This document shows, piece by piece, positions 22,267 to 59,796 of a DNA stretch of 64,000 bases (positions are counted from its first letter, which is position 1; each line of letters starts with the position of its first letter). A model generated the notes under the pieces. The model searched no databases, had not been told where the DNA came from, and worked only from the letters and a program-made list of their open reading frames with translations. The DNA is from an uncultured Bacteroidales bacterium. GTDB lineage: Bacteria > Bacteroidota > Bacteroidia > Bacteroidales > Paludibacteraceae. The position numbers were made by a program, and so were the translations under genes. The stretch covers positions 418 through 64,417 of the forward strand of contig ONBO01000003.1 of assembly GCA_900316125.1 (NCBI GenBank), written 5' to 3'.

Positions 22267-22289
22267 TGTAATAAGTTTGTAACAAAACA

Positions 22290-38525: not shown

Positions 38526-40269
<1,744 letters not shown>

Positions 40270-40422: not shown

Positions 40423-42105
40423 TTAGAATATATATCCGTACGCCACAGTGGCGCTAAAACGAAAGATGTCATCATTATTCAGCACCCACTGGTACTGACC
40501 AATGGCGTTAAACGTAAATTTGTGATGTTTCTTAAGTGTATATGCCAGTGATGTCCGTGCATTGGCGACAAAACGTTGATAAATCTTCTGTTCCAGACCA
40601 ACATTAGCGGAGAGCGAGGATGTCCAGTTAAGCGTCTTTTTAACAAAAAGCGCCGTCACACCAATGGTTGGCCCCACGTATATTGTCTCCAATCCAGCCA
40701 CTTTGTTCCATGTAACATTGGCGGAAGAGTTAAGTGTTACATTCTTCGTCTTAAACATTGCACTGTGCATGAGCGCCGTGTTTAGCATCATTGAGTTACC
40801 TACATCCGGAATACTGTCTCCGTAACGGTCATTAGTACACTGGAAAGAGGCGTTGGCGCTTAGAGACTGAGAACAGAAATCAGTACTCTCAACATTCCAC
40901 ATAGCAGAAAGATACGCATTATGAGACAACTGGGAAAAGTTGAGCGTGTCAAGATTCTCCGTTATGTCATACTGATTTATGTAGTCAAACTGAGAACGAA
41001 CGTTCTTATGCATCTGAAAGTTTGAATACGAGGCAGAGAAATTCATTTTCTCATTAGGAATGTAGGACCAGTTCAAAGACCCTACAAACCTGAGGCTTGT
41101 ATTCGTCTGAGTCTTACGTATATTGTCTCGTTCCACACCCACACTCGCCGTAAGATTCATCTTGTCACTTAGAAAAGCGGAAGCCACGTTCAATGTATAA
41201 TTCTCAAAATCAGAATTGAAATAATATGCGCCAAGCGATGCGTAATCAGGGTCAACATGCTCAAAGGCAAAACCTATGGATGTCTTTTTAACCTGATAAG
41301 AAAATCCGCACTTGGCGGCTTGGTAAAAGCCCAACGTAGCACCATTGGGAATGCGAAAATCATGTTCAAGAAAACTAAAGGCATACTCAGCAAACAGATG
41401 CAGAGCCTTAAACAGGGTGAACCCCACTTCAACATTGGCGGCGACGTTACGCTGAGGGGTTATTCCCAGACTGTCAGGTTTCCACTTGAGGGAGTTTTCA
41501 TAATCCTTTGCTATGAAAACACTGCCGCCCACATAAAATATCCTGTGATCATATCTGAGTTTTGCCGCCGCTCCCAAACGCTTGTAACACGCCGCAACAG
41601 TTGTCTGGGTGTTGTCAGGGTCATATTCCACAGCTTTCTGTAGCCTGCCGAACATTATTGACGCAGTCCAGTGTTCTGGTGTCAAATCAACACCTGCACC
41701 AGTAAACTGATGTCCGCCGAGCGTGTACGGGGAATAACTCATTGAAACGTCACCAATATGAGCCGAAGCCCACTTGTATGACGGATGTATGCCAAATCTG
41801 TTAGGCATATTAGGATACGCGTATGTGAAGCCTGAATTGGTGAAATTAAAGTTAAATGGTAAATCTATGAGTCTGAACAACTTGAAATTAACGCTCCCCT
41901 GTATCATGTAAGTCCACGGCAGATGCCCGTACATCTTACTCGCGGCATAATATGTGCCTGATGCAGACACGCCACCGCTTACCTTAAACAGCTCTTTTTT
42001 TGAGAAGTTCCGTTTCATATCCTCAATGCGTATGGTCTGGGCGGACAATGAGAACATTCCCAATGCCAGCATCAAAGCCACTATGCCACAACGTAAGACC
42101 TGCAA
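40423..42105 (-). CDS. Outer-membrane beta-barrel protein, family unknown (operon gene 8)
   Basis: 560 aa. A TTG start gives a good signal peptide (MQVLRCGIVALMLALGMFSLSAQ). The sequence has an alternating beta-strand pattern rich in aromatic residues and Gly. The C-terminus, YGYIF, has the aromatic terminal residue typical of OMPs. The start is 4 nt after the preceding stop. Confidence 0.6.
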   Translation of the reverse strand: MQVLRCGIVALMLALGMFSLSAQTIRIEDMKRNFSKKELFKVSGGVSASGTYYAASKMYGHLPWTYMIQGSVNFKLFRLIDLPFNFNFTNSGFTYAYPNMPNRFGIHPSYKWASAHIGDVSMSYSPYTLGGHQFTGAGVDLTPEHWTASIMFGRLQKAVEYDPDNTQTTVAACYKRLGAAAKLRYDHRIFYVGGSVFIAKDYENSLKWKPDSLGITPQRNVAANVEVGFTLFKALHLFAEYAFSFLEHDFRIPNGATLGFYQAAKCGFSYQVKKTSIGFAFEHVDPDYASLGAYYFNSDFENYTLNVASAFLSDKMNLTASVGVERDNIRKTQTNTSLRFVGSLNWSYIPNEKMNFSASYSNFQMHKNVRSQFDYINQYDITENLDTLNFSQLSHNAYLSAMWNVESTDFCSQSLSANASFQCTNDRYGDSIPDVGNSMMLNTALMHSAMFKTKNVTLNSSANVTWNKVAGLETIYVGPTIGVTALFVKKTLNWTSSLSANVGLEQKIYQRFVANARTSLAYTLKKHHKFTFNAIGQYQWVLNNDDIFRFSATVAYGYIF

Positions 42106-42109
42106 CCTG

Positions 42110-44968
42110 CTACTTAATTATCAGTTTAAATGTCTGTCTTATACTGTTTTCCGGCAGCATTAGTACCATGATGTACATACCAGCTGTCAGAGACAAGCTC
42201 ATCCGCTCAAAGTACTTGTCACTTCCTGCAAGGTTGAGCGTTTCAGCCACCTGAACACCTTTCACAAAATCACAGATGCGGATCTCTGCGTCAGACGCTT
42301 TGGACAGCTCCAGCGATACGGACACATTACCGTCTGACGGATTCGGTGATACGGAGAATCTTTTAATTGAGAGCCCCTCGTCATCATAATCACCAGCAAT
42401 AAACGGAGCGTCAACAACCTCCACTTTCTTGTAAACAGTCTCCTTGCAACCGTCATGATAGCTGCTCATACCCAGCATATACTCTCCTTCTTCGCTAAAC
42501 CTCATATCCAGATACCTATCTCCCTCCTCCACTATCTCTATTCCCGCATCTTGAGGATAGTGCCACTGGTATGAAGTAAAATTATCCCTTGTAATATTCG
42601 CTAGACGCACCAGGCCGTTCTTCTTGACGGTTGAGGCCACAATCCAGTCACAAGACACCTCTTTGGGTGACTTTATAACCTGCATGGTTGACGTGTCACT
42701 GCACAAACCGTCTGACGCTATTACCGAGTACAATCCGCCATCCGTTACATCTATTGAATCTCCATTAGTTAGATACTCATCACCACGATACCACTTGTAA
42801 ATATTTTCTGGAGCAGGCTTGTCAACTCCCACACGTACAGTCTGACCTTTGCAAACTGTTATCTCATCGGGGATACTCACCTCTATATTGCCATGCTGTG
42901 ACAAACTGACGTCCGTACTACTCGTACGGTTGGCAATATCTATTGCTGTGACGTTGTAGTCTCCAGCTCTAAGGTCTTGCAGTTTCAGCGTATGATTTTC
43001 AACCTTGTAATTCTCAGAGTCATCATTAGAACTGACAGTAACGGAATACGGCGGCTCCCCGCCGTCCAGACTGACGGATATCATACCGTCAGAATATCCA
43101 TAGCAAGTGACATTACGTTTGTCAAGGTTAAGCGCTATTGGTTGATGTATGTCAATCTCTGATGAACCAGTACAGCCATTATGGTCCATGACCTCAACAG
43201 TATAATGTCCTGATTGCAAACTGTTATTCACTACATACGAGGAGCTGAACGGATATGGAATAATAACGTCACCCTCCACCTCGGCGTCATCAGAGCGCCA
43301 ACTGACAGAATACGGAGCACACCCGCCGGTCACATGATTAAAATTCAGCACTCCGTCTGGTTTGCCATATTGTGTAGCGTCCACTCCGGACACACTGAAA
43401 TCCAGCGGCTCGTTTTCAAATATCTCTATGGTTTTGCCATACTGTGCCTGACATCCGTTGCCGTCAATGACCGATAGTGTGTATGACCCTGCGTCCAATC
43501 CTGAGAACTGAACCGCATTTGACTGACGGTTCTTGTATTCTCCTTTTACTGACTGAAGTGTTGCCGTATATCCGCCTTTTGCATTGAGTACGCTGTATGA
43601 AACGCTTCCGTCTTTAGCACCAAAACACGTTATGTCACTTTTCCCTACATTTGCAATTTCAAGAGCGGGTGGTGCCGCCGGCATCGTAACAACCGCACGG
43701 TGACGGGGTGCTCCTGCGTAATACTCATGAAAGTTTCCATTCGTATCAGTCCATCCGCCGCTTATTTCAACCTTGTAGGTTTCAGGTAAAATATCATTAA
43801 ATACAGTTACTGTACTCACATTTGTAGTATCACATATTGGTTTTTCACCATCCAAAGCATTATCCTTTTTTACAATCAAATTGATATTACCTGAAGAAGC
43901 AACCTCTTTGGATAGTTTAACAATCAATTTCCCTTTGTCTCCAGCACATTTAGGTTCCACAACCTCAACATCTATACCTGGAGCGGATAATACTGGTTCC
44001 AACGTAATTGAACCTTCTGATTTTTTACACACAACAGATTCATCCATATTAATATATATCTTATCTCCATCAACAATCATCTGTTTAAATTTTTCCTCAG
44101 AGAACAAATCATATCCGTCAAAAGACAAAAATGGAGCGAAATAATCATCGCCATACAGCATAAAGGCAGTCAAACTCTTGAATGATGATTTTTGTTCGTT
44201 ATGTGTTACTGTGAACTGTGGTTTATATATTCTCTCAGGAAAACCAGGCGTCATCTCAAAATAAACTTCATCCTCTGATGGTAAATTCATTGTAACTCTA
44301 GAATCAGAATTCAACTTATATTGCCAATCACTATCAAATGCATACATTAAAATTCTATTGGGAATTACTGTGAGTACACTCTTAAATGTGCATTTTATTC
44401 TTGCTCCATCATAATTATATTGGAAGGCACTCTTACAGTTATACCCTAAACTTTGGAGCTCAATATCGTTTATTTTCCTTTCATAAGTGAAGGCATTTAT
44501 CTCAATTGGAGTGCCAACTTTAAAAATGAAAGTTGTTTGATTGTTTACCGTTTCATTCCTCAACTCTCTGCAACTACTACTTATTTCAAATGCTCCATAA
44601 TACGACCGAGTTAGATTTATTACATTACCCTCTTTTAAATAATGATTACCTACTGTTGCTCTAACAGACGGGAATGACCTTGATGACTGATTAAATGTAG
44701 ATGATTGTTGAGTGCCGACACCCATAAATGTTTGATTTAGATTATATTTAAAAATGTTTGACTTTGAATTGTGAGATATCCACCCTCCGTTATATTCCTC
44801 AACATATTCAGTGTCAAACTTTATTACATACTCCCCAAACGGAATATCCACATCATCTGAAAAAGAACTCTCCATTGCACAGCATCCAATAGGAATGACA
44901 CACATTGCAATTATGAACGATACAACATGCAATTTAATGTTGCTCTTTATGTTTTTTAAGTTTCTCAT
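42110..44968 (-). CDS. SprB-repeat cell-surface protein with type A T9SS C-terminal sorting domain (operon gene 7)
   Basis: 952 aa. It has repeated C.G..DG.(I/V)......GG..PY motifs (ITCFGAKDGSVSYSV, VTCYGYSDGMISVSLDGGEPPYSV). The tail FSVSPNPSDGNVSV...GMYIMVLML...FKLIIK is CTD-like. Its start overlaps the gene 6 stop (TAATG). Confidence 0.75.
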   Translation of the reverse strand: MRNLKNIKSNIKLHVVSFIIAMCVIPIGCCAMESSFSDDVDIPFGEYVIKFDTEYVEEYNGGWISHNSKSNIFKYNLNQTFMGVGTQQSSTFNQSSRSFPSVRATVGNHYLKEGNVINLTRSYYGAFEISSSCRELRNETVNNQTTFIFKVGTPIEINAFTYERKINDIELQSLGYNCKSAFQYNYDGARIKCTFKSVLTVIPNRILMYAFDSDWQYKLNSDSRVTMNLPSEDEVYFEMTPGFPERIYKPQFTVTHNEQKSSFKSLTAFMLYGDDYFAPFLSFDGYDLFSEEKFKQMIVDGDKIYINMDESVVCKKSEGSITLEPVLSAPGIDVEVVEPKCAGDKGKLIVKLSKEVASSGNINLIVKKDNALDGEKPICDTTNVSTVTVFNDILPETYKVEISGGWTDTNGNFHEYYAGAPRHRAVVTMPAAPPALEIANVGKSDITCFGAKDGSVSYSVLNAKGGYTATLQSVKGEYKNRQSNAVQFSGLDAGSYTLSVIDGNGCQAQYGKTIEIFENEPLDFSVSGVDATQYGKPDGVLNFNHVTGGCAPYSVSWRSDDAEVEGDVIIPYPFSSSYVVNNSLQSGHYTVEVMDHNGCTGSSEIDIHQPIALNLDKRNVTCYGYSDGMISVSLDGGEPPYSVTVSSNDDSENYKVENHTLKLQDLRAGDYNVTAIDIANRTSSTDVSLSQHGNIEVSIPDEITVCKGQTVRVGVDKPAPENIYKWYRGDEYLTNGDSIDVTDGGLYSVIASDGLCSDTSTMQVIKSPKEVSCDWIVASTVKKNGLVRLANITRDNFTSYQWHYPQDAGIEIVEEGDRYLDMRFSEEGEYMLGMSSYHDGCKETVYKKVEVVDAPFIAGDYDDEGLSIKRFSVSPNPSDGNVSVSLELSKASDAEIRICDFVKGVQVAETLNLAGSDKYFERMSLSLTAGMYIMVLMLPENSIRQTFKLIIK

Positions 44969-46032
44969 TATTTTCCGGCTTCAATTACATTCACCAACTC
45001 GTTAATATTAACGGTTAAGTCAGGCGAACCATTCTTGTATTTCTCGTAAATATTATGAGAAAGGATTAAATCACACTTTTGCGGTTCTGGAACCCAATCC
45101 ACTAAAACAACTTCTAAATATTCCAAATTATCACACTCACTTAAATCAATTTTCCGAATCCCGTGACAGTTAGATAATGCCACATTTTTAACGTTTTTTG
45201 CATTTGACATGTTTAATTCTTTAATCGAGAATTTTTCTACCGATAGAGATGTTAACAATGGCATATCAAGTTTTTCAAAACCATATATTGTAGGACAAGT
45301 GGAAGAATTGGATGTTAACGCAATACCTTCTATTACTGATTCAGATGAAAAAATCAATCTTATATGATTAGCCGTACTATTGCAATTAATATAGTTTAAA
45401 TTAATGATTCTAAGTGCTTTATTTCGACTAAAATCAACTGGTCTATCATAATAATAGTCATACTCTTCATCATAATAATCGAGATCTATATAAGCATAAT
45501 AATTAATTTCAGACATAATAACCTTAACATTTTTCAACAAAGAGGCATCTGCCTGATACCACTTGTCAAGCATCTCTATTTTTGACATTTCATATTTTGA
45601 CATAATGCCGTCATTGTTCAAGTCAAGACCTTTACTTATGTAATATGAATCCCCTCCTGAAGGCAAGGTTACAAGTACAACCAATGTATCCTTATACACC
45701 TTCCCATTATTTTCACAATACAAAGAAACGTATGTGGGGTCACTGCTTAATGAGGTTATTTCACACTGTTCATTGACAGAAAGTACAGACGGGTCACACG
45801 GAGTGAATTTAATGTTATAATCTACTGGATTCTCTATCTTCTTATAATCCACATATATATCCGGCTTAATTACATCACCCACTTTGCATTTAATCACACG
45901 TGGCACAAATACTACCGTATTGTTAACTGGCAAGTATTTCTTTTGTGGAGTGTCATCCTTCTTCTCACACCCGCACAACAGCACAGCACCTGCCACTAAT
46001 AGAATAACTGCTCTTAAAATTGTTTTGTTCAT
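44968..46032 (-). CDS. Lipoprotein with Ig-like, EF-hand/dockerin-like and LRR-like segments (operon gene 6)
   Basis: I place the start at ATG 46032 (MNKTILRAVILLVAGAVLLCGC is a lipobox). The sequence has DLNNDGIMSKYEM and C-terminal LRR-like repeats (L..L.......I..L....). Confidence 0.6.
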   Translation of the reverse strand: MNKTILRAVILLVAGAVLLCGCEKKDDTPQKKYLPVNNTVVFVPRVIKCKVGDVIKPDIYVDYKKIENPVDYNIKFTPCDPSVLSVNEQCEITSLSSDPTYVSLYCENNGKVYKDTLVVLVTLPSGGDSYYISKGLDLNNDGIMSKYEMSKIEMLDKWYQADASLLKNVKVIMSEINYYAYIDLDYYDEEYDYYYDRPVDFSRNKALRIINLNYINCNSTANHIRLIFSSESVIEGIALTSNSSTCPTIYGFEKLDMPLLTSLSVEKFSIKELNMSNAKNVKNVALSNCHGIRKIDLSECDNLEYLEVVLVDWVPEPQKCDLILSHNIYEKYKNGSPDLTVNINELVNVIEAGK

Positions 46033-46060
46033 TTCTGTTTTGTTTTTATTTAGGTTAATA

Positions 46061-47278
46061 TTATTTGTTATCACTTTTATCCAATTGCTTTCCATTGAGG
46101 AACTGGTCAAACTCTGATTTGTGTACCCTGTAAAATTCTTTGTTTACGGTAATAGGCTTCTTGAAGATTTCAAGTTCATTCAACTTGTCGTTGCCGTAAA
46201 TAAACCGGTCTAGCAGATAAATCATCTCAACAAATCTGGATTCTACAGAACCCTTGTGTTTTTTCTTGTATTCCTCACTGTCAACAGGACAACCAAAGAC
46301 CATGTGCTTTAAGGCAGCAATATCTTCTATATTATCTGGGAATGGATTCAGTCTTCCTCCTGCAGCATCTAAAATAACCATTTCACAATAATACACGGTC
46401 TCTTCAGACGGTGAGCAAAACAACGTTTTTTCGCCATAGAATTTATTCTCCTCGTTTAACCTGACTATTATAACAAAGTCTTCACACTGCATAAAGAGAG
46501 ATCCGTCGATAAACTCATACCTGATGTTGTGTCTTTCCACAAATTCCTTAAAATAGAATTTCTCTTTATAAATTGACAAATTAACATACGGGCATATCAC
46601 CCCCTTTTTCTCCATCAAACTGAGAATGTCTGGGTCTGGATTTTTCAAATCAAGTTCATACACATCTTCCTTCCCTGTATATTCTTTTTTGAGCGATTTC
46701 TCTATATTGTCGGTTTTCAAATAACGGCGTCGAAGGATAATCTTTTCAATATATCGTTTAGGAATAAATGTATATGAATCATATCCGTCATAGTGGCTTC
46801 CCCCTGATTTTTCTATAACCTCGCTTTGCGGTATGGTCTTCAGTATCTCCTTCTGAATGTCTGTCAACTCCAGTGTGTAGCCTGAATGGGAAAGGATGAC
46901 ATATTCCGGGAATATCTCCGTCATACTCCACAAAAAACAATCTGCCTCCTTCTCAAACTTAACCTCGTATCCGTTTATAACCATTGTGACATAATAGTCG
47001 TAAAAAGCCTCAACTTCTGACTTGCGGATTAAGTGGATAGGATACCAGTAGTCTTTATTATCATTGGACTTAGCCACATGGTCTGGTTTTACAACTACTG
47101 TACCTTTTCCATTATACCATCCGTCAGACAAGACCGATGAATTTTCAGCAAAGCGACACATATCAACAAATGTTACAGTCCCCACTCTTGCTTTTTTTTG
47201 TATCATTGGTCGGCATTCTCTACCATATATTAAAACAGAACCTCTATCATTAAATATATTATTAATAACAATATTCAT
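46061..47278 (-). CDS. Hypothetical cytoplasmic protein, 405 aa, no signal peptide (operon gene 5; immunity-protein candidate)
   Basis: An intact ORF starts 8 nt after the gene 4 stop. I recognise no motif. It is very AT-rich, like the 3' half of gene 4. Confidence 0.5.
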   Translation of the reverse strand: MNIVINNIFNDRGSVLIYGRECRPMIQKKARVGTVTFVDMCRFAENSSVLSDGWYNGKGTVVVKPDHVAKSNDNKDYWYPIHLIRKSEVEAFYDYYVTMVINGYEVKFEKEADCFLWSMTEIFPEYVILSHSGYTLELTDIQKEILKTIPQSEVIEKSGGSHYDGYDSYTFIPKRYIEKIILRRRYLKTDNIEKSLKKEYTGKEDVYELDLKNPDPDILSLMEKKGVICPYVNLSIYKEKFYFKEFVERHNIRYEFIDGSLFMQCEDFVIIVRLNEENKFYGEKTLFCSPSEETVYYCEMVILDAAGGRLNPFPDNIEDIAALKHMVFGCPVDSEEYKKKHKGSVESRFVEMIYLLDRFIYGNDKLNELEIFKKPITVNKEFYRVHKSEFDQFLNGKQLDKSDNK

Positions 47279-47286
47279 AATTCCAT

Positions 47287-50200
47287 TTACTTACTAATCC
47301 ATATTAATTTTTCGTTTACCTCTATCAATTCATATACATTCTCTACTACTCCATTAGCATTATATTGGGTAGCGGTTGCACCTTTCTGCAATGGGAATCT
47401 TACATCCTTTTCCCCAATATAGAACTCCGGAACAATCAAGTCCGTTTCCTTGTGACCTAAAACACCTGTATATGTCTGAGGCAGTTTTTTCTCTACATTA
47501 TTCAAATATTCCTTGGCTTCATACGGACGTTTAACATTTCTTACCATGTCGTCTGTCATTGTTGTCTCAATCTTAACATATCCAGTTGAATTAAGGAAAG
47601 GTGAATTATCATAATGCAAACCTATATCTACTATCAATTGACTTAATTCAACATTATTTAAACTGTAATCAGATGCTTTTAAAATACATCCATTGATTTC
47701 AGTTGAATTGTTTTTTATAAAACGATATTCAAATTTTACAGCTTCAACATATTTAACTACCTTCTCACCTGATTTAGGCAGTTCAAAGCATTTTTCAGAA
47801 ATTGCTCTGGTCAACATTACAAGTTCATCACTTGCATCCCCTGTGGAGGCAAGCCTGTTAATCTGGATAAGTTTACCTATATCATCATCGGTCAACCCCT
47901 CTTTTTTCAGAATATTACAAATGTTCTTGTTCACTTTTGTAATATCTACAGTTTCCAATCCTTCCCATGCTTTTAAAACCTTAGCGTCCACTTTTGCAAA
48001 AGAAGAGAGTCTCTTGTGCAAACTCAACTTTGAAGCGATATGTTCTGCTACCTTTGGCAACTGTTTAACAAAAACAGACCCTGCAACAATTGTTAATACA
48101 GATCTTGTTGTACCCCTGGAGCCTAAATTGCGTTTTCTTCCACCATCAGTTTCATTTAAGCCAAGTTCCCTATATTCATCCGACGTCAGTCCGGTTGCCT
48201 CCTCCAATGCAATGTCAGCAAGCAGTTTGAACAGCACACTCTTGTCTTCTCCTATGGCATCTGCAATGGCTGACAAAGATTGCCTTACCTCTTCTCTTTT
48301 TTCTTCGCTTACAACTAACTCATATCCCGTATAAACAATGGACGTGACATCCGTAACATCTCTTAGAGCGGCTTCTGATGTACCTGTAAGCAACCCTGGT
48401 AACTTTATTATACTTTCACTGTTGTCATTATATATTTTCTGCTGGAATTCACCGGTTTTTAATACTTCAGAAACCATTTCTATTCCAGATGCAGCGATTT
48501 TGAAAAAAGTTTCATTTCCCCTGACCTGAACCTGTTCCCCTCCTGGAAACTCGTCCTCTATATGATTCTTCGTCTTTTCAGACAAAGATGTTACGTTCTC
48601 TTCCTTAAGCCACTGGTTCGTACTCCTGCAAATCTCATCAGACAGTTCTCCGTAATTAACAACACCTATGTTTTGAGACTTGAAATTCTTGTTTATGCCA
48701 ACAACTTTTAGTTGCCATATTCCGTTTTTCTTGTAAATGCGAATCTTTGATTCTGATTCATCCCCAAGAATACCTTGCCTTATATCTTCATAAGTAACAT
48801 TATCTTGTTTAACAACTCCGTTATCTAGATAATATGCCTTTCCGTTGTAGAGAATCTCGAATTGTTGACCCTTTGATGCATATTCCGCCAGTTCTTTCAA
48901 TTGCCCGCTTACAAAATCAGAAAAACATTTTTCAACAATTGAAGTCAGTTCCTTGTTGTCTATAGAGGCATTCTCACATATATTTGAGACATTTGAAGAA
49001 GGGTCACACGCAGAGACAACAATTCCATTGTCAAGTATTACAACAGCATCAACAAAATCCTCTGAAATTACAAAATTAGCATTAGAAAAAAACTCTCTAT
49101 CTGTTATTTCAATAACCTTAGACCATTCTCCGTCTCTGCAACCATACGCTTTGTATGTTTCAACCACATCTATGCCTGTTTCTCTTCTATTGGCATCTGA
49201 ACCGCACTTTCTGATATATGCGTAATCATAACCGGCAAGCTGTTTCACCGCATCTCTAACCCATTCGCTATCCTCATCCTTCTCCCATAGTTCCGTTAGC
49301 AGGGCGGGATTGTGGATTTGGTTCCACTGCCACTTGGCTATGTGCGTGGCTCTGCTTGGTGTGGGGGCGTAGTCCATAAGGTTGTCTGTCTTTCCCTTTT
49401 TGCTCTCCGCTCCCTTTCCGTATTCGCTGTCAAACGTATGGCGCAGGCGGTATTTGCCGTGCCCGAGCTCGTGCGCTATTACAGCCGGCAGGTTTTCAGA
49501 CTTAACGGCGTCTGTGTTTATGTACCCGTACTGCTCGCCGCGCGGCATGAAGCCTGCAAGCTCCCTCTTGGAGCCTGAGCCGTTTGCCGGCATCATAAAC
49601 AGGTAGCACGTTTTGCCGTCATACCTGTCTCCAAGATATGTTTCAAACGCCCTGTTAAGGTTTTTCTGGCGAGAGTTGTAAAGTTCCAGAGCCTTGCTTT
49701 TGCTGTCAAACAGGTACGCTATGCTATCCTTTGGGTATGAGAATCCGTTCTCCTCCGTGACGTTCCACGTTACACCCACCCTGCCGTATATGGAGTTAAG
49801 CCCCGCCTCAATCTGGCTTGCGCTGTATGAACCGCCCAGATTAACCAGACACACACCTGCTCTCATTGGTGCGCGGGTGTCAACATCAAGCATACCTAAC
49901 TGGTAGCACCTGTCTCCCACCATGTAAACCGCATGGACGGTCTGGCGACTGTCTGCCTGTGAGGCGGCAACCGTTACGCTGTACGTCCCGTCTGCATTGT
50001 ACGTTGACGGCAGTACCGTAACACCGCCTTCATCTGAAACAATGAACTGGAGGTCCTCCGGCTTTGGTATCTCCTTCTTGCCTGAGCCTGTGAGCTTGAG
50101 CCTCGCTCGCACCTGCTCCGTGCAACCCTCTCCTATAAAGAGCCACGGCACGTCATAATACGGGTCACAGTTTGACATCCTGCGGTATATGCGCCCGCCG

Positions 50201-51876
50201 CCGTTGGCTCCGTCACTGTTGAGCAGCAGCGCTGCTGTCTCATAGAACTTCAGCGGTGAGTCAAATGTAAACACGCCGCTGTCGTCCTTCTCAAAGGTCA
50301 CGGTCCCAAGGTCTCCCCTTATCCCGCTCAGCTGGCTCTCGCTTATGTATTTGCCAGTCTGGCGCCCTAACGGTGTGAACTTGTACCTGCCTGTAGGTCT
50401 GCTGTCTGTGTCCGTCTCCTCCTCAATCTGAACCAGATTACCATCATTGTCCTTGACCCTTATAGGGAACACAGGCTCGCCCTGCTCGTTCCGAGGCGTT
50501 TCTATTGTGCCTATAACGCTCCCGTTCTCATCTTTAAGGGTAAGCGTTCCTGTGACGCTGTCATACTCAGCTCCGCTTACGTCTGTCAGGAGGAAACCAA
50601 CCGAAAGGTCTGGCAACACCACCCCGTTTTTGAGTCTCTTGCCACCGCCTTGCAGCAGCATGTCCGTGCCGCCTATCTGAGAGCCTGACATGTCACACCT
50701 GACTTCCGTATAGCCAGATATCAGCTGCCTGGATGCGTTCACCTGTATGTTCCTGATATCTACCGTGAAATCCACGCCTATGTACGGTATGAACATATAC
50801 CCCTCTCCGCTGAAGGTGGACCCGCTCTGCGTGAGCGATGTGACAACAACCTTAAAACCTCCGCCCACGGTTATGGTGTCTCCCACCTCCAGATGCTCCG
50901 CAGGGGTGAGGTCTGTCACCGTGTAGCTGTCCTCTCCGCAGCGTGATATGCGCTCAGGGCTCTTGTCAAAGGGGTCCCTGTCTTCTTTACGCTTGACCGT
51001 AACTGTGTCATGAACATCATACCCGTCCGGATGCCTGACATCAAATGTGAACACCTCACTGTAACCTCCGTTTGTAAAATGCACAGTGCCCTCCACGCTG
51101 TACGCCCTGACACACCAGCCGTAACGCTTACCCTCCTCCAGTTCAGGTTCTGACAGGGAGTACGTCAGGCTGGTGGATGCCGTCTCTGTCTGGTATATAG
51201 TCTGCGAGTAGTTATATGCTGACGTGGGGTTGGACAGCGTATCCGCTATCTCCTTGATGGTAATCTCATACATTACTCCGGCTCCTGAATAGCTGTGACG
51301 GGGCTGCCACTGCAGCTGGAAGGAACGTGCGCTCAGCGGACGCATGACTATGCCGTTCTTAGGATACAGCAGTGCTGGGGGCTTGTTTATTGTGAGGTTA
51401 GTGACTGTGGTGTACGGTGTGGAGACTACAACTCCCGTGTGATACTCCACTGCCTCAAATGTGAACGTGGCGAGACCTTCGGGCATCGCCCCCTGGAACA
51501 TGGTGCCTGTGACATCAAGATTGCGAAGCTCAAAGTACGGGGAGAGCTCTGCGGCGCCAAGGCGTTCTGACATACCTGGGTATAGCGTGACAGCCTCAAA
51601 CACGGCCGACGGCTTTGTCCTCAGCATTAGTCCGTTCTGACACTTGACGGTCATGCGAAGGCGAACATCAATGCCTGTACTCATCACATCACGGTTAACA
51701 AGCACAACTGTGGCTCGGTCTTCAAAGCCGCTCACATAGTCTGACAAGTACACTGACGGAGACGTAATCTGTGCGCTGACCTGTACAGGGAAGGATGATA
51801 CTCCCTGCGCAGACACACGCACAACATATAACAGTAGTGATAATGTTAATATTATTTGTTTACTGAATCCTTTCAT
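47287..51876 (-). CDS. Giant exported protein, 1529 aa: N-terminal Ig/Fn3-like region, metzincin-like HExxH domain and AT-rich C-terminal module (operon gene 4; polymorphic-toxin-like)
   Basis: It has a signal peptide (MKGFSKQIILTLSLLLYVVRVSAQG). HELGHGKYRLRHTF is encoded at about 49438-49473 and is followed by NLMDY. Its ATG directly abuts the gene 3 stop (TAAATG). Confidence 0.7.
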   Translation of the reverse strand: MKGFSKQIILTLSLLLYVVRVSAQGVSSFPVQVSAQITSPSVYLSDYVSGFEDRATVVLVNRDVMSTGIDVRLRMTVKCQNGLMLRTKPSAVFEAVTLYPGMSERLGAAELSPYFELRNLDVTGTMFQGAMPEGLATFTFEAVEYHTGVVVSTPYTTVTNLTINKPPALLYPKNGIVMRPLSARSFQLQWQPRHSYSGAGVMYEITIKEIADTLSNPTSAYNYSQTIYQTETASTSLTYSLSEPELEEGKRYGWCVRAYSVEGTVHFTNGGYSEVFTFDVRHPDGYDVHDTVTVKRKEDRDPFDKSPERISRCGEDSYTVTDLTPAEHLEVGDTITVGGGFKVVVTSLTQSGSTFSGEGYMFIPYIGVDFTVDIRNIQVNASRQLISGYTEVRCDMSGSQIGGTDMLLQGGGKRLKNGVVLPDLSVGFLLTDVSGAEYDSVTGTLTLKDENGSVIGTIETPRNEQGEPVFPIRVKDNDGNLVQIEEETDTDSRPTGRYKFTPLGRQTGKYISESQLSGIRGDLGTVTFEKDDSGVFTFDSPLKFYETAALLLNSDGANGGGRIYRRMSNCDPYYDVPWLFIGEGCTEQVRARLKLTGSGKKEIPKPEDLQFIVSDEGGVTVLPSTYNADGTYSVTVAASQADSRQTVHAVYMVGDRCYQLGMLDVDTRAPMRAGVCLVNLGGSYSASQIEAGLNSIYGRVGVTWNVTEENGFSYPKDSIAYLFDSKSKALELYNSRQKNLNRAFETYLGDRYDGKTCYLFMMPANGSGSKRELAGFMPRGEQYGYINTDAVKSENLPAVIAHELGHGKYRLRHTFDSEYGKGAESKKGKTDNLMDYAPTPSRATHIAKWQWNQIHNPALLTELWEKDEDSEWVRDAVKQLAGYDYAYIRKCGSDANRRETGIDVVETYKAYGCRDGEWSKVIEITDREFFSNANFVISEDFVDAVVILDNGIVVSACDPSSNVSNICENASIDNKELTSIVEKCFSDFVSGQLKELAEYASKGQQFEILYNGKAYYLDNGVVKQDNVTYEDIRQGILGDESESKIRIYKKNGIWQLKVVGINKNFKSQNIGVVNYGELSDEICRSTNQWLKEENVTSLSEKTKNHIEDEFPGGEQVQVRGNETFFKIAASGIEMVSEVLKTGEFQQKIYNDNSESIIKLPGLLTGTSEAALRDVTDVTSIVYTGYELVVSEEKREEVRQSLSAIADAIGEDKSVLFKLLADIALEEATGLTSDEYRELGLNETDGGRKRNLGSRGTTRSVLTIVAGSVFVKQLPKVAEHIASKLSLHKRLSSFAKVDAKVLKAWEGLETVDITKVNKNICNILKKEGLTDDDIGKLIQINRLASTGDASDELVMLTRAISEKCFELPKSGEKVVKYVEAVKFEYRFIKNNSTEINGCILKASDYSLNNVELSQLIVDIGLHYDNSPFLNSTGYVKIETTMTDDMVRNVKRPYEAKEYLNNVEKKLPQTYTGVLGHKETDLIVPEFYIGEKDVRFPLQKGATATQYNANGVVENVYELIEVNEKLIWISK

Positions 51877-54800
51877 TTAGTACTTGTAATAAACCTCTAC
51901 ATCTGATGTCTTTATGCCGCCCGGAATTGTATATGAAACAAACGACTTGTATTTTCCTCTTGGCATGGACGAAACGGAATATTTTATAAGCCGCTTTTCA
52001 TAATCATTCAGGGATCCGCCTTGCACCCAGCGGTTCATAACCAGACCTAATAAATCATAAAAGTCACTTGAATAATACAGGCTCAGTCTGTATATGTGGG
52101 GGAATACGCTTAACATTCCACCCTCATCACCATTTGATAGGCAATGTGAATAATACGGGCTTACAGTAATTGCATTAAGCGGCGGCACTCCAATAACAGA
52201 TGTATCCCTGTTGACATTGAATTCTGAGGAAGAATATCCTGAATACAGATTAGGGTATATATTCTGTTTGTAATAAGCGTCATCACCTGTTGAACGTACA
52301 GTGACAAGTGGTTGCGCTGACCACTCTGACGCAAACAGGTCAACAGCGTCAAAACTTTCATCCGCCTTTGCAGCTAAACCGAGCAGCACAGTGCTATAAC
52401 TATTCTCTATGTCCCAGAACCCGCGAAGCGACATGGAATTCACCTTCTGCCTGAACGTCTTGTACTTACTTGTGCGGAATGCGTAACTGAGAATTGATTT
52501 CCCAATATCCGTACGCATCTCACTGTCCGCAACATTATGCTTGGTGCTGATATCCGCATTAACACCTGACAGCTTTTTATAGACAGCCTCATTTTTCACA
52601 GATTTTACCTCTGCGTCCTTAGGCCTGCCGCATAGATTGACATTTAACTCCGTTCCAACTGGGAGTTGTGACGGTACGTCATATTTAATAGTTTTTGAAG
52701 ATTTATCATACTTAATCTCCTGCGAGGCAATAATGTCTCCATCTTCATTTATAAAATCGGCAGTAAACATAAGGGAGTCAGCGAATAGATATGTCTGACC
52801 CTGCTTTAACCGGATGTACCCATGTCCGTACTCTTCCTTATGAAAATTACGCTGATTTCTGACAGGATATGAATACTCTATGTTGCGATCAGGAATGTAA
52901 TCTGGTGCTTTTCCTGTCACAAACACAACCTCTCGTTTCTCCTGACTCGCCTGCCCTGATGTATAGACTGTGCTCCACACCCCTTCCTTGTACTGACGGA
53001 ATCCTACAGAGACATTTATCTTAAACGTGGTTTCAGGGTCAAGAATCTCATGCGGATAAAAACTGTATTTATCCTTCTCATCATTCCAGCTCCATTCACC
53101 CTGTACAATGGCACCAGTCTGCATGTTTGTCAATGTGCAGTTATCTATAACCGCCATCATGTTTACAAATTCCTCGTCCAGCCTTGTCTCAAAAGGTTTG
53201 TTAATTCCAATGTTGAACGCCACCTGCGGAACAGAGAACACATCTACGTCTGATTCAGAAGGAGAAATGTCACCTATCACCTCCATGTCAAGCGGAGACT
53301 GTCCGGGAACAAGCAGATTACACTTTTCTCCAAGTTCAAACTTGAAATCAATACTGCCCTTTATCAAGCCGCCCAAGATGCTAAAATTAACACCCATCTT
53401 GCCTCCGAACCACGTTGGATTTGGAAGCATTCCCTGAAGCAACACAGCCGCGCCACCCTTGATAACCGGGATTTTGGCCTTTATAAACCATAGATTAACT
53501 CCTACTCCGAGTTCACCTGCAAGATAAGCGTACAACTGACCCGTGGCGTACCAGCCATCCATTCCTATGGTTCCGCTACGCCCCGCACACTGCGCATTCT
53601 CATACTGTCTTAGCATCAGGTCAAAACCTAAACCAGCCTGGAATCTGGCGTATAGAATAATACACCAAAGCTCTCCTGTGTCAATTGACAGACTTGAACC
53701 AAAGGCGAAGCCTTTACCCTTGGAAAATGCATCATTATTTCTGCTGACACTAAGGCTGCTTAGTTCAGACGAGCCAAACACTTCAGCAATCTGAGGCGGC
53801 ACAGGTAACGCATCCGGCATATTACACCCGGCCATCATGTATGCAGTGGTCTGAATATGGACAATATCTAATGCATTGAGCTCCACACCTATCGGGTTTG
53901 ATGGTGTTCCTATATGCAGATACCACTCCTTGGGCTCAATATGAAGAGTTACCCATCCTGCACGGCCTTCCGCACCCACTCCCTTTAGAAACCCTTCCAT
54001 AAAGTTTACGTATATTTCAAAATTGGAGTGCAGTACATCATTTACGAAATCATACTCTATGGCAAGATTAGCCACAATTCCATTAGCTGACGGCCTCTTT
54101 CTTACATCTTCATCTGTTTGTGACAGCATGTTCTTTGCTCCGCCCATATTAGACAAAGACGCACTGTCAAGAAATTTGCCCTGCCCGTAAAAACCTACTC
54201 TGTTAACGCCTCCATACCTGTTGAACTCCATCTCAAGCATAAGTTTAAGGCTTGCGACCTCCTGACTTGGAATAACAAGTATGACTCCGGCCTTGAAACC
54301 AAGCCCGCTGTTATTATCAGGTATGTAATTATAGGCGTTTGAATCAATAACACCCAAGCCTGAACGTTTCATACCGTATGACATACCACCAGCAAAGCCC
54401 CCAATGTTTACATATCCCGCACATGGTATAGGTGGCGTAAATGCTGCACTTGCGTCCACATACCAATATGAATCTCCGTTAACCCTGCCAAACACAGCAC
54501 TTGCTTTTATTACAAACTTAACCCCTGCAGACACCTCCAAATCAAGACTTCCTGCATATCCGTTGCCGTAAACTGGATCATCATAACGGGCAGAGGCTCT
54601 GCCTCTTAACTTCACTACTCCTCCTATTTCCGCATATACATCTATCTCCCTCAGTTCAAAACGCTTGAACCTCCACTGCTGAATGCCATCATCCTCCTGC
54701 AAATCACCCAACAATGCGAAACTGGTTGAAGCGCTGGTCACTTGTATGTCCATCTTAAGACCTGCATAGAAGTTAAGTGAACGGTCATTGGCTGTAAGAC

Positions 54801-56232
54801 CAAGCTCTGTGATGGAGACTGGCATATTCATAACAGATGATTCATTCCTATAGCCAAAGTAGTCCACGCTTACATACGGCTGCTCAGTCTGAATATGCAA
54901 ATTCTGGAAAACAACCCCCTTAAATGATGCGATGCTGTCTCCCTTGTCACTTTTTACAGACAGGTCCAGATTGCCGCACAGATTTGCCTCTGGACGGAAA
55001 ACGCCTTCACGCACCGCCAACTTAATGTATGAACCAGGCATGATGTTTGCCTGCGCTTGTAAAACGTCAAAAGATACGGTATCACCAACACTGACCGTCA
55101 TGGAGTAATTATTGTCAATATCCCACATACCTTCATACTCAAAGGCGGAGCTCTTCTGATCTGCTATAGGGATGCCTATGCGTCCGGCAAACGCAGCCTC
55201 TGTAAGCGTATTGGCCATAAGCCCCACTCTGAACTTGTCCACAGAGAATCGCCATCCTGATGCGTTGCCGTCAGAAAAGTCTAAAATAGGGGTCTCAGCC
55301 ACAAAAAGCCCGCTGATACCGTTTTCATCTATCAAAAGGTCATTGGCTGAAAAAGTAAGTCTGCCGCCTTTTTTACCCTTAAACTGCTCCGGCACTGTTA
55401 CCAGGATGCGGCCTGCGTAAAAGCCTTGCCAGATATTAACATCTGGCAGACCGTAGAGGTAGTTTGCTTCATAGTTCTTAGGAAATGTGACATTGCCGTT
55501 TCTGCGATGGCTGAAATCAAACACAACGTCCTCACACGCAAAATCAAAACCGTCCAACCCCATTATGGCAAATCTCGGCAAAGTGGCCTCTGCCAGCCAG
55601 TCTTCCCAATCATCAGCCTTGACCTGAAACGAGGCTCTTACGGCACCTCCATTGGGCTTGCCATCCTCGCTTACTGTCTGCATTATGGATTTGCTGAACT
55701 CCACATCGGCGGCTATTCCAAACCCTGTCACACCCTGACATGAAATATTAGCATAAGTCAAGTCGGCCATCTGACCTGAGTTGGAGATTCCGCCTCTCAA
55801 AATAATTTTTGCGTTATTGTCAAAAATTGGCATCTCAACATCTTGCAATAGAACTAGCCTTGCATCTCCAACAATATCACCATCATTTGACAACATGATT
55901 CCCTCCGCTCCAAAAAACAGAGGGATGCTGTCCTCCGGGCTGTCAGCACTTTTACTTGGTATGAATATACGTGCAAAGATATCCATTGAACAGTATTCCT
56001 TCGTGCTCCGCACCTTTGAAACTGCCAACGTGACGGTGGTGTTACCCATTGTGTGGCGGATTCCCATTGGAAGGTTATTACGAACGCTACCTGGGTCAAG
56101 TTTTGTTACAAAATTCCCGTTGTCGGTCACTTTCTGCAAATATGACCTTGCCTGCTCAATAGTGTTTGATGAGGCATATACAGGAATTGCAATAGCCGCC
56201 AATATGATTAGTTGTAACAGTCTTTTAGTCAT
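51877..56232 (-). CDS. Giant exported beta-rich protein, 1451 aa, family unknown (operon gene 3)
   Basis: It has a signal peptide (MTKRLLQLIILAAIAIPVYAS). The ORF is long and intact and starts 9 nt after the gene 2 stop. I recognise no catalytic motif. Confidence 0.6.
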   Translation of the reverse strand: MTKRLLQLIILAAIAIPVYASSNTIEQARSYLQKVTDNGNFVTKLDPGSVRNNLPMGIRHTMGNTTVTLAVSKVRSTKEYCSMDIFARIFIPSKSADSPEDSIPLFFGAEGIMLSNDGDIVGDARLVLLQDVEMPIFDNNAKIILRGGISNSGQMADLTYANISCQGVTGFGIAADVEFSKSIMQTVSEDGKPNGGAVRASFQVKADDWEDWLAEATLPRFAIMGLDGFDFACEDVVFDFSHRRNGNVTFPKNYEANYLYGLPDVNIWQGFYAGRILVTVPEQFKGKKGGRLTFSANDLLIDENGISGLFVAETPILDFSDGNASGWRFSVDKFRVGLMANTLTEAAFAGRIGIPIADQKSSAFEYEGMWDIDNNYSMTVSVGDTVSFDVLQAQANIMPGSYIKLAVREGVFRPEANLCGNLDLSVKSDKGDSIASFKGVVFQNLHIQTEQPYVSVDYFGYRNESSVMNMPVSITELGLTANDRSLNFYAGLKMDIQVTSASTSFALLGDLQEDDGIQQWRFKRFELREIDVYAEIGGVVKLRGRASARYDDPVYGNGYAGSLDLEVSAGVKFVIKASAVFGRVNGDSYWYVDASAAFTPPIPCAGYVNIGGFAGGMSYGMKRSGLGVIDSNAYNYIPDNNSGLGFKAGVILVIPSQEVASLKLMLEMEFNRYGGVNRVGFYGQGKFLDSASLSNMGGAKNMLSQTDEDVRKRPSANGIVANLAIEYDFVNDVLHSNFEIYVNFMEGFLKGVGAEGRAGWVTLHIEPKEWYLHIGTPSNPIGVELNALDIVHIQTTAYMMAGCNMPDALPVPPQIAEVFGSSELSSLSVSRNNDAFSKGKGFAFGSSLSIDTGELWCIILYARFQAGLGFDLMLRQYENAQCAGRSGTIGMDGWYATGQLYAYLAGELGVGVNLWFIKAKIPVIKGGAAVLLQGMLPNPTWFGGKMGVNFSILGGLIKGSIDFKFELGEKCNLLVPGQSPLDMEVIGDISPSESDVDVFSVPQVAFNIGINKPFETRLDEEFVNMMAVIDNCTLTNMQTGAIVQGEWSWNDEKDKYSFYPHEILDPETTFKINVSVGFRQYKEGVWSTVYTSGQASQEKREVVFVTGKAPDYIPDRNIEYSYPVRNQRNFHKEEYGHGYIRLKQGQTYLFADSLMFTADFINEDGDIIASQEIKYDKSSKTIKYDVPSQLPVGTELNVNLCGRPKDAEVKSVKNEAVYKKLSGVNADISTKHNVADSEMRTDIGKSILSYAFRTSKYKTFRQKVNSMSLRGFWDIENSYSTVLLGLAAKADESFDAVDLFASEWSAQPLVTVRSTGDDAYYKQNIYPNLYSGYSSSEFNVNRDTSVIGVPPLNAITVSPYYSHCLSNGDEGGMLSVFPHIYRLSLYYSSDFYDLLGLVMNRWVQGGSLNDYEKRLIKYSVSSMPRGKYKSFVSYTIPGGIKTSDVEVYYKY

Positions 56233-56241: not shown

Positions 56242-57162
56242 CTATTTAATGTCAATTGGAGCCGTATAACCCACAGCTCCTGTATTGAGACGGTATTTAA
56301 TAAAATACGAATATTCAAGTCCGGGCTTGACATCTCGGTCAAGATATGACCTGTAATCTCCTGCAAGTATTTTAATGACCCTTACACCTGCTGAATCATG
56401 CCTGTACACTTCAAAACACTTAAAAGACTCCGTTGTCTTTGGTTTCCAAAGAATCCAGATGCCAATGCCAGGCTCCTTCTGCAGTTTAACAGAAATGTCT
56501 GACTTTTTCTGTGTGACAGCCTTGACTGCTACAGGTTGGGATTCTGATGATTTATTGCTACTGCTGTCAATTGCTGCTATTGAGTAGATGTATTTTGTAC
56601 CAAAATCTGAGTCATTGTCTGTGTATGACAGGCTGTCTTTGGGAATGTCTATGTAAACAGTGTCATTGAGGCTGTCTGTACGTCTCATCCTGTAAGTCTC
56701 AACATCATCTGGAGTGGCGCAAACCCACCTTAATGTAACACCGTCTTTTGTTGCATTAAATGATGTGAAGCATGGTGTCATTGGAGGTATGACATCTGGC
56801 TTTGACAGTCTCACAACCGCACTCTTATCTGATAGGTTGTACCTTTCATCTATGCCAGCAATGGCGTAACAGACACTGCGGTTAAGCATCTTTATGTTGA
56901 CAGTATCAACATAAGCTGTATCAGTTACAACTTCACTGTTGACTTGTATTAAGTGTCCGCCATCGATGTCTGACCTGTAAAGGCGGTAGCCCAATATGTC
57001 AGCATCTTTGTTGGCGTTCCAGCGCAGACGCACCACACCAGCGGTGTCTATCTCGCCTATCAAGCCTATTGGTACCATTGGAGGCACACTGTCTATAGTC
57101 TGGACAAGCACAGGCAGGGATAACTTACGGCTGCCGTCTTTGCCTACTGCGGCTATCTTCAA
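56242..57162 (-). CDS. Fn3-repeat protein, 306 aa; probably the C-terminal part of a split gene (operon gene 2)
   Basis: It has three units of the pattern D..PP..P.GL......G.V.L.W......D(I/V).GYR(L/M)YR....Y.Y.I.A(I/V)D..(S/G)N.S. It begins at TTG in the middle of an Fn3 domain and has no signal peptide. Confidence 0.5.
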   Translation of the reverse strand: MKIAAVGKDGSRKLSLPVLVQTIDSVPPMVPIGLIGEIDTAGVVRLRWNANKDADILGYRLYRSDIDGGHLIQVNSEVVTDTAYVDTVNIKMLNRSVCYAIAGIDERYNLSDKSAVVRLSKPDVIPPMTPCFTSFNATKDGVTLRWVCATPDDVETYRMRRTDSLNDTVYIDIPKDSLSYTDNDSDFGTKYIYSIAAIDSSSNKSSESQPVAVKAVTQKKSDISVKLQKEPGIGIWILWKPKTTESFKCFEVYRHDSAGVRVIKILAGDYRSYLDRDVKPGLEYSYFIKYRLNTGAVGYTAPIDIK

Positions 57163-57176
57163 ATAATTTGTAGGTT

Positions 57177-57300
57177 TTGTTATTGTTTGAACATCAGTTT
57201 CAGGTGGGCGATATCATAGAGATCGAGGGATACCGCGGCAGGGTTTTGGAGATCGGTGTGCGCTCCACAAGGCTGCTGGGCTCCGGCAATGCCGTAATCG
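57177..57300 (+). pseudogene. About 40-codon fragment of an MscS-family mechanosensitive channel gene, antisense to the operon
   Basis: The plus-strand translation LLFEHQFQVGDIIEIEGYRGRVLEIGVRSTRLLGSGNAVI fits the MscS beta-domain consensus (F..PF.VGD.I.I.G..G.V..I.LR.T.(L/I)....G..V.I). It is bounded upstream by TAG (57171-57173). No further channel sequence flanks it. Confidence 0.55.
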
Positions 57301-59735: not shown

Positions 59736-59796
59736 AATTGTGATTTTAAGTTTATTGTATTTTGCAAAATTACTAAATAACGAGCGCAAATGCAAA

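Follow-up and report, generated by a model that had tools for sequence, protein, structure and literature searches.

Polymorphic toxin systems, reportedly described by Zhang, Aravind and colleagues in 2012, are said to join a conserved N-terminus to varied C-terminal toxins, with an immunity gene downstream. The Rhs proteins of E. coli consist of a GC-rich conserved core, a short conserved motif and AT-rich toxin tips, with immunity genes downstream, and in CdiA a VENN demarcation motif stands before exchangeable toxin-immunity modules, the receptor-binding domain being a separate polymorphic region. Here we analyzed a stretch of 64,000 nucleotides from an uncultured bacterium of the Paludibacteraceae (contig ONBO01000003.1, positions 418 to 64,417; hereafter the window), and in particular a block of about 5.5 kb of low G+C content (GC) whose borders fall inside two genes, i.e., gene 4, which encodes a predicted toxin, and gene 7, which encodes a protein with SprB repeats. 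We propose, with a probability of roughly 0.8, that this block, exchanged among related lineages by recombination at conserved junctions, forms the variable part of a polymorphic toxin locus of the TANFOR type in a gut member of the Bacteroidales akin to Candidatus Enterocola.

The TANFOR-domain polymorphic toxins of Bacteroidetes were defined by Jana, Salomon and Bosis (2020; PMC7073777). According to the sections of that paper covered here, the gene neighbourhoods of these toxins are enriched in SprB repeats, the sorting domain of the type IX secretion system (T9SS) and Fn3 domains, and the toxin genes often lie directly downstream of a gene for an SprB/T9SS-sorted protein. The same sections present export via the T9SS as speculation only and treat as an open question how the toxins leave the cell and reach their target; the toxins are known there from domain architectures and one nuclease only. 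A full-text literature search for 'TANFOR', judged on titles and abstracts, yielded no follow-up on delivery. Given that the present locus belongs to a class already described, the claim that it is a polymorphic toxin cassette is not in itself new. What goes beyond the literature covered are the fine-mapped breakpoints, the two-module structure, the phylum-wide set of partner genes and an uncharacterised toxin domain.

GC was profiled in a 300-nt sliding window, and change points were placed by likelihood segmentation over the whole 64 kb. The three strongest change points were found at 43,761, 49,231 and 51,821, the first two agreeing with the borders at 43,760 and 49,270 that had been claimed in an original prediction made from the letters of the window. 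Sliding GC was 28-40% across about 43,850-49,250, 44-49% below the block and 51-57% above it, the GC of the whole window being 43.6%. The block itself has a GC of 35.2%, which is more than 5 standard deviations (sd) under the mean for all other 5.5-kb windows (43.9%, sd 1.6, minimum 40.2). Codon usage showed the steps as well: GC at third codon positions (GC3) went from 0.59-0.71 (about 0.63) to 0.26-0.39 (about 0.31) at codon ~870 of gene 4, and from 0.21-0.29 to 0.39-0.48 at codon ~400-430 of gene 7. Because third codon positions showed the strongest drop, amino-acid composition does not account for the step and was rejected as the source of the low GC. As originally described, the block takes in the C-terminal ~660 amino acids (aa) of gene 4, all of genes 5 and 6, and the N-terminal ~400 aa of gene 7, and the HExxH/NLMDY core of gene 4 (HELGH at aa 802-806, NLMDY at aa 832-836) does lie upstream of the upper border.

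Homology searches identified 33 relatives of gene 4, about 25 of which align just to aa 1-~872 and then continue into unrelated tails; in the closer relatives, the BLASTP alignment stops at aa 868-882. The conserved part, i.e., the carrier, closes with the motif ...NPALLTELWEKDEDSEW (...WEKDEDSEW), whose last conserved residue, W872, corresponds to window position ~49,261. Related proteins and contigs are given here as P and L numbers, respectively. P0003-P0006 were 96-97% identical to gene 4 up to the junction, followed by tails of 426-468 aa unrelated to that of the window. P0002, when compared with gene 4 in blocks of 50 residues, was 56-78% identical over aa 1-750 and 94-100% identical over aa 801-1350; at the nucleotide level, the carrier of P0002/L001 was 62-72% identical to the window, but identity reached 98-100% across 49,400-41,800. 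Nearly the same tail (about 99%) thus rides on a carrier that is just about 68% identical. The relatives' tails fall into several unrelated groups and are mosaic among themselves, and distant relatives include one with a CHAP domain at its end (P0024) and one with PT-HINT ahead of its last domain (P0029). In the original prediction, a conserved carrier with an exchangeable C-terminus had been taken as the signature of a polymorphic toxin locus. This interpretation gained support from the relatives that share nothing past aa ~872, from the occurrence of one tail on a diverged carrier, from the CHAP, AHH and PT-HINT domains of relatives, and from the replacement of gene 5 together with the tail.

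By exhaustive HMMER searches, the 660-aa tail was split into two modules. Module A, a helical pre-toxin region (tail residues ~100-430), is common to many carriers of the gene 4 family, in which it is followed by at least 14 unrelated C-terminal families; in P0039 the domain after module A is an AHH nuclease (Pfam). Module B, which makes up the last ~245 aa, has the conserved motifs GYVKIE, RPY, PQTxTGxLG and PE[FY]Y and was also found in short proteins, as well as behind a DUF4280 domain in P0076 (on a contig of 1.4 kb) and P0096. An AlphaFold model of module B, computed from a 16-sequence alignment, had a mean predicted local distance difference test score (pLDDT) of 91.6 and a predicted template modelling score (pTM) of 0.88; for the whole tail, modelled from its single sequence, the pLDDT was 36. 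The best Foldseek matches of module B were the S1 subunit of pertussis toxin (E = 0.06) and the ADP-ribosyltransferase Vis (E = 0.34), neither of which was significant. An identity as ADP-ribosyltransferase was not adopted, since, in our own judgement, the conserved R, QT and E motifs appear to stand too close together for that fold. Scanning of Joint Genome Institute (JGI) metagenomes with module B patterns produced 245 pattern matches and 0 confirmed relatives. Module B represents an uncharacterised family of predicted toxin domains. In the L005 variant, the tail bears a GLMQ-type motif reminiscent of lytic transglycosylases and the gene downstream has a signal-peptide-like start; Pfam gave no confirmation, and lytic transglycosylase was retained as a hint only.

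Gene 5 starts 8 nt past gene 4, and its product has no signal-peptide-like N-terminus. Across seven loci, the gene that follows each tail type was found to be unrelated between cassettes (18-31% background identity), with a product of 405 aa in the window, 433 aa with a signal-peptide-like start in L005, 334 aa in L011 and 126-147 aa in L028, L029 and L030. Gene 5 has no family assignment, and only three close homologues of it were found (73-87% identity); both of those whose context was read (L001 and L032) sit in the same type of locus. Gene 5 is presumed to encode the cognate immunity protein and, since it lacks a signal peptide, the toxin would probably act in the cytoplasm of the target.

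Displaced fragments of toxin and immunity genes occur in the related loci L001 and L028. L028 (12,828-12,998) retains, behind an unrelated 126-aa immunity gene, the 3' end of a gene 5-type gene; these final 55 codons match window 46,061-46,231 with 96% identity. The remnant is a scar of a replacement of the toxin-immunity pair in which gene 6 remained untouched. An insertion in L001 (15,941-16,682), located between the homologues of genes 5 and 6, carries an orphan copy, 172 nt long, of the toxin patch of window type (97% identity to 47,639-47,810), a duplicated gene 6 5' end and a 147-aa open reading frame (ORF) with several hydrophobic (membrane) spans; the ORF is a possible orphan immunity gene. 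Elsewhere in the 64-kb window, a search by blastn and tblastx for orphan copies of the cassette, a check suggested in the original prediction, detected none.

The related contigs mostly share the order 2-3-4-(immunity)-6-7-8; L029 departs from it, and several contigs are partial. We distinguished lineage A, i.e., the backbone of the window together with L005, L011 and L012, from lineage B, i.e., L028 and L030, which occupy another genomic location and whose backbone proteins are just 50-79% identical to those of the window. In comparison with L005, L011 and L012, the flanks of the window were 98-100% identical, identity was 75% at 49,301-49,400, there was no alignment from there to about 43,700, and identity was 60-70% over 43,700-43,400 and 100% below 43,400. 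This is the collapse of identity at both borders that had been expected, with alignment lost over about 49,300-43,700 and near-identity again below 43,400. In comparison with L028 and L030, identity was 58-84% in the carrier and 98-99% at 49,301-49,400; the tails did not align, identity was mostly 91-100% from about 46,200 (L028) or about 46,050 (L030) to 43,401, and alignment was lost or weak below 43,400.

The left crossover was placed using the informative sites of a six-locus alignment and a 100-nt identity profile: the window is of lineage-A type above 49,423 and of lineage-B type from 49,420 down. The right crossover, at about 43,400, corresponds to gene 7 aa ~522, between ENEPL and DFSVSG, and coincides with an SprB-repeat boundary. 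The window consequently contains one continuous tract of lineage-B type, about 6.0 kb long, within a lineage-A backbone, and the crossovers lie outside the GC steps by about 150 nt on the gene 4 side and about 350 nt on the gene 7 side. The toxin-immunity module and a second module, formed by gene 6 and the head of gene 7, most likely arrived together in this genome.

Both crossovers fall in stretches conserved between the lineages, at which a metagenome assembler might have switched between co-occurring strains, and gene 2 of the window shows an oddity that is absent from other assemblies. However, contigs of three independent assemblies (ERZ931543, ERZ27279861 and ERZ1029110) matched the window at 100% identity along 14-20 kb that include both junctions, so the mosaic is not an assembly artefact, and a different mosaic, that of L001-L004, was equally reproducible in four assemblies. 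An assembly chimera was rejected on these grounds, and we regard it as extremely improbable.

The C-terminus of gene 4 had originally been called compositionally foreign, a description that turned out to be misleading. As shown in Table 1, the GC pattern was alike in 7 of 7 loci, which represent two diverged lineages and L029, and in all alleles. Low GC recurs in every lineage and allele and is thus a mark of the variable segments as such, not of a single import; it is a standing property of a fast-turning pool of variable alleles and not the trace of one foreign donor. The same observation bears on the proposal that an unrelated low-GC organism donated the block in one event, as a genomic island that landed by chance inside two genes. 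The sharp steps in GC and GC3 and the near absence of homologues of gene 5 would fit such an event, but both reading frames are intact across the borders, synteny is kept in relatives, low GC is found in every allele of the same segments across three diverged lineages, and gene 6 and the gene 7 head are 91-100% identical to those of the lineage-B Enterocola-like loci. Moreover, the PADLOC defence models gave no match, and neither PADLOC nor Pfam revealed defence or mobility domains in genes 2-8. With no mobility domains turning up and synteny conserved, a mobile-element island was rejected, and a single acquisition of this kind is highly improbable. The carrier part of gene 4 (49,231-51,821, 2.6 kb) is itself a GC-rich island, with 54% GC and a GC3 of 0.63 against a background of 44%, and carrier GC remains at 52-53% in lineages whose carriers are just 58-68% identical.

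Gene 6 had been regarded as an orphan accessory gene, but it is present as a lipoprotein gene in every locus of this clade, in the form of very divergent alleles (24-48% aa identity). Its product has a lipoprotein signal (…LLCGC followed by EKKDD) and a leucine-rich-repeat-like C-terminal half. Gene 7 encodes the Pfam domains SprB, Ig_7 and Por_Secre_tail and matches TIGR04183 with 32.4 bits (cut-off 23); its head is 26-44% identical between allele classes in the seven loci. The window, L001, L028 and L030 share one allele (gene 6, 96-99% identity; gene 7 head, 88-99%), the gene 6 allele of the window being 96% identical to that of lineage B, and this one allele is paired with three different toxin-immunity pairs (window/L001, L028 and L030). 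In L005 and L011, the first 27 aa of gene 6 are identical, with an overall identity of just 38%. This shared gene 6 start, the scar in L028 and the insertion in L001 together place a third junction at about the point where the immunity gene ends (3') and gene 6 begins (5'). On the evidence of these seven loci, the toxin-immunity and gene 6/gene 7-head modules assort independently in the population. The original suggestion that a whole unit is swapped therefore holds for this genome, in which a single tract runs from 49,420 to about 43,400, but such joint exchange is not obligate, as the modules recombine separately among the window, L028 and L030.

Within an allele class, the ratio of nonsynonymous to synonymous substitution rates (dN/dS) lay at 0.09-0.16 in gene 6 and at 0.31-0.39 in the head of gene 7. 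Values of 0.02-0.20 were obtained for most other segments; the gene 7 stalk of the window-L005 pair, which is nearly invariant, had a value of 0.57. The gene 7 head protein evolves two to three times faster, with dN/dS not above 1, and gene 6 and gene 7 are both functional.

The variation of gene 6 and of the gene 7 head could be unrelated to the toxin if their products were surface antigens or phage receptors under pressure from host antibodies or phages. Consistent with this, the same gene 6/gene 7-head allele accompanies three different toxins, and the divergence between allele classes is deep (24-48% aa identity), although purifying selection acts inside each class (dN/dS 0.09-0.39). The toxin gene of Cytophagales has the gene 7 homologue on its upstream side, which separates the head from the tail, and no gene 6 homologue was found in distant loci. 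Since gene 6 and gene 7 adjoin the toxin cassette, a single recombination tract could carry both even then. On the other hand, SprB/T9SS-sorted genes are tightly and widely linked to the toxin family across Bacteroidota, both in the loci compared here and in the sections covered of PMC7073777, a linkage that favours a common function for the genes as wholes, though not for the head in particular. We consider toxin-unrelated surface variation a real possibility, at somewhat under even odds. It is an alternative to the role in target recognition proposed below and leaves the cassette model untouched; either of the two readings could apply to the second module.

With regard to the class of gene 4, its N-terminus (MKGFSKQIILTLSLLLYVVRVSAQG) is signal-peptide-like as judged by eye, and is followed in the carrier by a divergent TANFOR domain, an Fn3 domain (aa 172-267) and a metzincin-like peptidase (aa ~689-851), the region of the latter giving weak matches to Peptidase_M57 and Reprolysin. 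The curated TANFOR model, TIGR02542, matched the distant relatives P0022, P0023, P0025 and P0026 at aa ~17-164 (E = 1.5e-11 to 5e-4), and a profile built from these four matched segments detected aa 28-153 of the window gene 4 with 87 bits (E = 5e-23). The N-terminus of gene 4 thus appears to be a homologous but divergent TANFOR domain, which would make gene 4 a divergent member of the class. All genome matches of the gene 4 family were Bacteroidota, ranging over Candidatus Enterocola sp., Paludibacteraceae, Cytophagales, Cyclobacteriaceae and Chitinophagales. A PDB sequence search with the carrier gave no match.

Several points weigh against the interpretation of the block as a TANFOR-type toxin cassette. 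TIGR02542 itself had no match on the window gene 4 at E <= 0.1, and its scores on the relatives of gene 4 were all under the 67-bit cut-off. Searches with Pfam and NCBIfam detected no C-terminal T9SS sorting domain in gene 4, which can be attributed to the fact that its C-terminus is the predicted toxin domain. For module B, neither a known toxin family nor a known fold was found by Foldseek against the PDB or by profile comparison with PDB sequences and Pfam. The product of gene 5, with its 405 aa, is large for an immunity protein, and it could be assigned to no family. Patches of gene 5 (aa ~103-132 and ~225-330) are window-type in L032, as is a toxin patch (aa ~1375-1450), and the gene 5 and toxin patches are both of another type in L001; this co-variation is consistent with a co-evolving interface, but it comes from three loci of linked DNA, and linkage alone could explain it. 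Finally, the evidence for independent assortment of the two modules comes from seven loci.

In distant Bacteroidota, too, homologues of gene 4 are found together with those of genes 2, 3, 7 and 8 (L014-L026, e.g., L020:196-12,772). Gene 3 is 37-40% identical beside gene 4 homologues in Paludibacteraceae, Cytophagales and Cyclobacteriaceae, and gene 8 is conserved at 40-47% in the distant loci, in which no homologue of gene 5 or gene 6 was found. In Cytophagales and Cyclobacteriaceae the order is 3-2-7-4, in agreement with the position of TANFOR toxin genes downstream of an SprB/T9SS-sorted gene in the sections covered of PMC7073777. The only known domains of the partner genes 2, 3, 7 and 8 are Fn3, SprB and the T9SS sorting domain. 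Such a conserved partner set suggests a dedicated multi-protein apparatus. More speculatively, genes 2, 3, 4, 7 and 8 might form a T9SS-linked apparatus for contact-dependent toxin delivery, with the gene 7 head and, in Enterocola, gene 6 as its target-recognition module; we hold this to be doubtful. If true, strains would reassort target choice ('whom to bind') and payload ('what to inject') as a pair of adjoining cassettes, in a multi-protein functional analogue of the receptor-binding and toxin regions of CdiA.

Taken together, the data lead us to the following model of a recombining toxin cassette. Gene 4 would encode a Sec-exported carrier composed of a TANFOR-like domain, Fn3, a beta-rich region and a metzincin-like peptidase, ending at the junction ...NLMDY...WEKDEDSEW. 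Past the junction, the exchangeable tail would consist of module A as pre-toxin and module B as terminal toxin domain. On this model the tail is predicted to be toxic and the peptidase would release it, with T9SS-linked partner genes helping in export and the product of gene 5 protecting as the cognate immunity protein. Genes 6 and 7 would constitute the second hypervariable module, i.e., a lipoprotein and a T9SS-sorted SprB-repeat surface protein with a variable head, which may serve in target recognition. Homologous recombination, with crossovers in the peptidase/junction region of gene 4 and at the SprB-repeat boundary of gene 7, would have placed the ~6.0-kb lineage-B tract in this genome; population-wide, the toxin-immunity and gene 6/gene 7-head modules would be swapped separately via the third junction.

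The genes from miaA to the ABC-F ATPase form a tight row on the minus strand (Table 1). Gene 2 is a single 677-aa gene in relatives but is represented in the window by two ORFs of 323 aa and 306 aa, with 98 nt (57,194-57,291) in place of 222 nt kept by L008-L010. These three assemblies are otherwise 100% identical to the window, and the split occurs in the window only. On the plus strand, the same 98 nt encode a fragment of a mechanosensitive-channel beta-domain (PF00924, 29 bits) inside gene 2. The oddity reflects either a genuine rearrangement or an error in the assembly at this place. Gene 3 had no known family or domain in Pfam and NCBIfam and no PDB sequence match; likewise, gene 8 had no family match in Pfam and no PDB sequence match, and gene 6 had no match in the PDB sequence search. 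A sigma-70 promoter scan is uninformative for Bacteroidota.

Two related loci depart from this row. In L029 (13,696-20,229), a more distant locus, a gene 8 homologue of 561 aa separates gene 6 from the immunity gene, and gene 7 is longer, with 1114 aa and extra SprB repeats. In L032 (1-4,585), which belongs to a metagenome-assembled genome shared with L013 and L017, the gene 6 homologue is directly followed by an AAA-ATPase-like/PD-(D/E)XK gene and not by gene 7; this variant of the locus may be rearranged. Elsewhere in the window, a second low-GC patch (35-37%) at 7,001-9,000 coincides with a BspA-type leucine-rich-repeat gene (6,898-8,439; LRR_5, E = 2e-93), and two very large minus-strand ORFs, of 1597 aa (with a cadherin-like domain) and 3105 aa, occupy 17,319-31,607.

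Table 1. Features of the toxin locus in window coordinates, with the GC of segments as found across seven loci.
Feature	Positions	Strand	GC, 7 loci
miaA (IPP transferase)	59,797-60,702	-	
AAA-ATPase-like / PD-(D/E)XK gene	58,191-59,795	-	
Gene 2, Fn3-containing secreted protein	56,242-58,151	-	
Gene 3, 1451 aa, signal-peptide-like N-terminus	51,877-56,232	-	
Gene 4, 1529 aa, predicted toxin	47,287-51,876	-	
Gene 4 carrier, aa 1-872	49,262-51,876	-	52-53% (GC3 ~0.6)
Divergent TANFOR domain, aa 28-153	51,418-51,795	-	
HELGH of the peptidase, aa 802-806	49,459-49,473	-	
Left crossover, within HTFDSEYG codons of peptidase domain	49,420-49,423	-	
Module A, helical pre-toxin region, aa ~969-1299	47,980-48,972	-	
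Module B, terminal domain, aa ~1285-1529	47,290-48,024	-	
Gene 4 tail and immunity gene			24-45%
Gene 5, 405 aa, presumed immunity protein	46,061-47,278	-	
Gene 6, 354 aa from ATG, lipoprotein	44,968-46,032	-	32-37%
Gene 7, 952 aa: SprB repeat, Ig_7, T9SS sorting domain	42,110-44,968	-	
Gene 7 head, aa 1-~430, hypervariable, low GC	43,679-44,968	-	33-35%
First SprB-like repeat of gene 7, aa ~431-522, normal GC, lineage-B type	43,400-43,678	-	
Gene 7 stalk and T9SS sorting domain, lineage-A type, 99-100% identical to L005, L011	42,110-43,399	-	46% (stalk)
Gene 8, 549-aa secreted protein, last conserved partner gene	40,423-42,072	-	
ABC-F ATPase	38,526-40,148	-	

Near-identical strains of a common gut lineage that differ in nothing but a 6-kb tract make the locus a natural experiment; the breakpoints of the tract are known to a few bases in gene 4 and, in gene 7, to the boundary of a repeat. 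The locus makes testable which part sets the specificity of killing, which part confers immunity and whether an SprB-like adhesin serves delivery. It also adds a family of predicted toxin domains for which the structural model is confident and the PDB search found no fold relative.

In comparison with known systems, the fusion of module B to DUF4280, which is a PAAR-like domain of type VI effectors, indicates that the predicted toxin domain is shared between different types of carrier. Gene 4 itself differs from type VI effectors in having no PAAR, DUF4280, VgrG or Hcp, and no type VI genes were present among the genes scanned. With Rhs proteins, the locus shares a GC-rich core with AT-rich exchangeable tips, as well as displaced tip fragments and orphan immunity genes downstream; however, gene 4 has no YD/RHS repeats (Pfam, NCBIfam) and no association with PAAR or VgrG, and its carrier architecture and presumed export route are different. 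With CdiA/CdiB, it has in common a demarcation motif (here ...WEKDEDSEW) before an exchangeable toxin-immunity module, and a separate polymorphic region. In contrast to CdiA/CdiB, no two-partner-secretion domain, FHA repeats or CdiB-like transporter were found with Pfam (genes 3-8 at E <= 0.01, gene 2 at E <= 0.1), and the second variable region is located in two other proteins, i.e., the product of gene 6 and the gene 7 head.

The TANFOR toxins are the described class to which we assign the locus. The window gene 4 differs from them in being too divergent for TIGR02542 and in carrying a metzincin-like domain right before the toxin junction, no word that starts with 'metallo' occurring in the text of PMC7073777. 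Strain-level breakpoints, the gene 2/3/4/7/8 set and a second variable module are not described in the sections of that paper covered here, and module B is not among the toxin domains that those sections name. The features in common, as far as the same sections go, are a large protein with a Sec signal (putative in gene 4), an N-terminal domain of the TANFOR type (divergent in gene 4) and Fn3, followed by polymorphic tails and then by immunity genes (presumed here); a distribution restricted to Bacteroidota; and a neighbourhood of SprB-repeat, T9SS-sorted and Fn3 proteins, here represented by genes 7 and 2, with Fn3 also present in gene 4.

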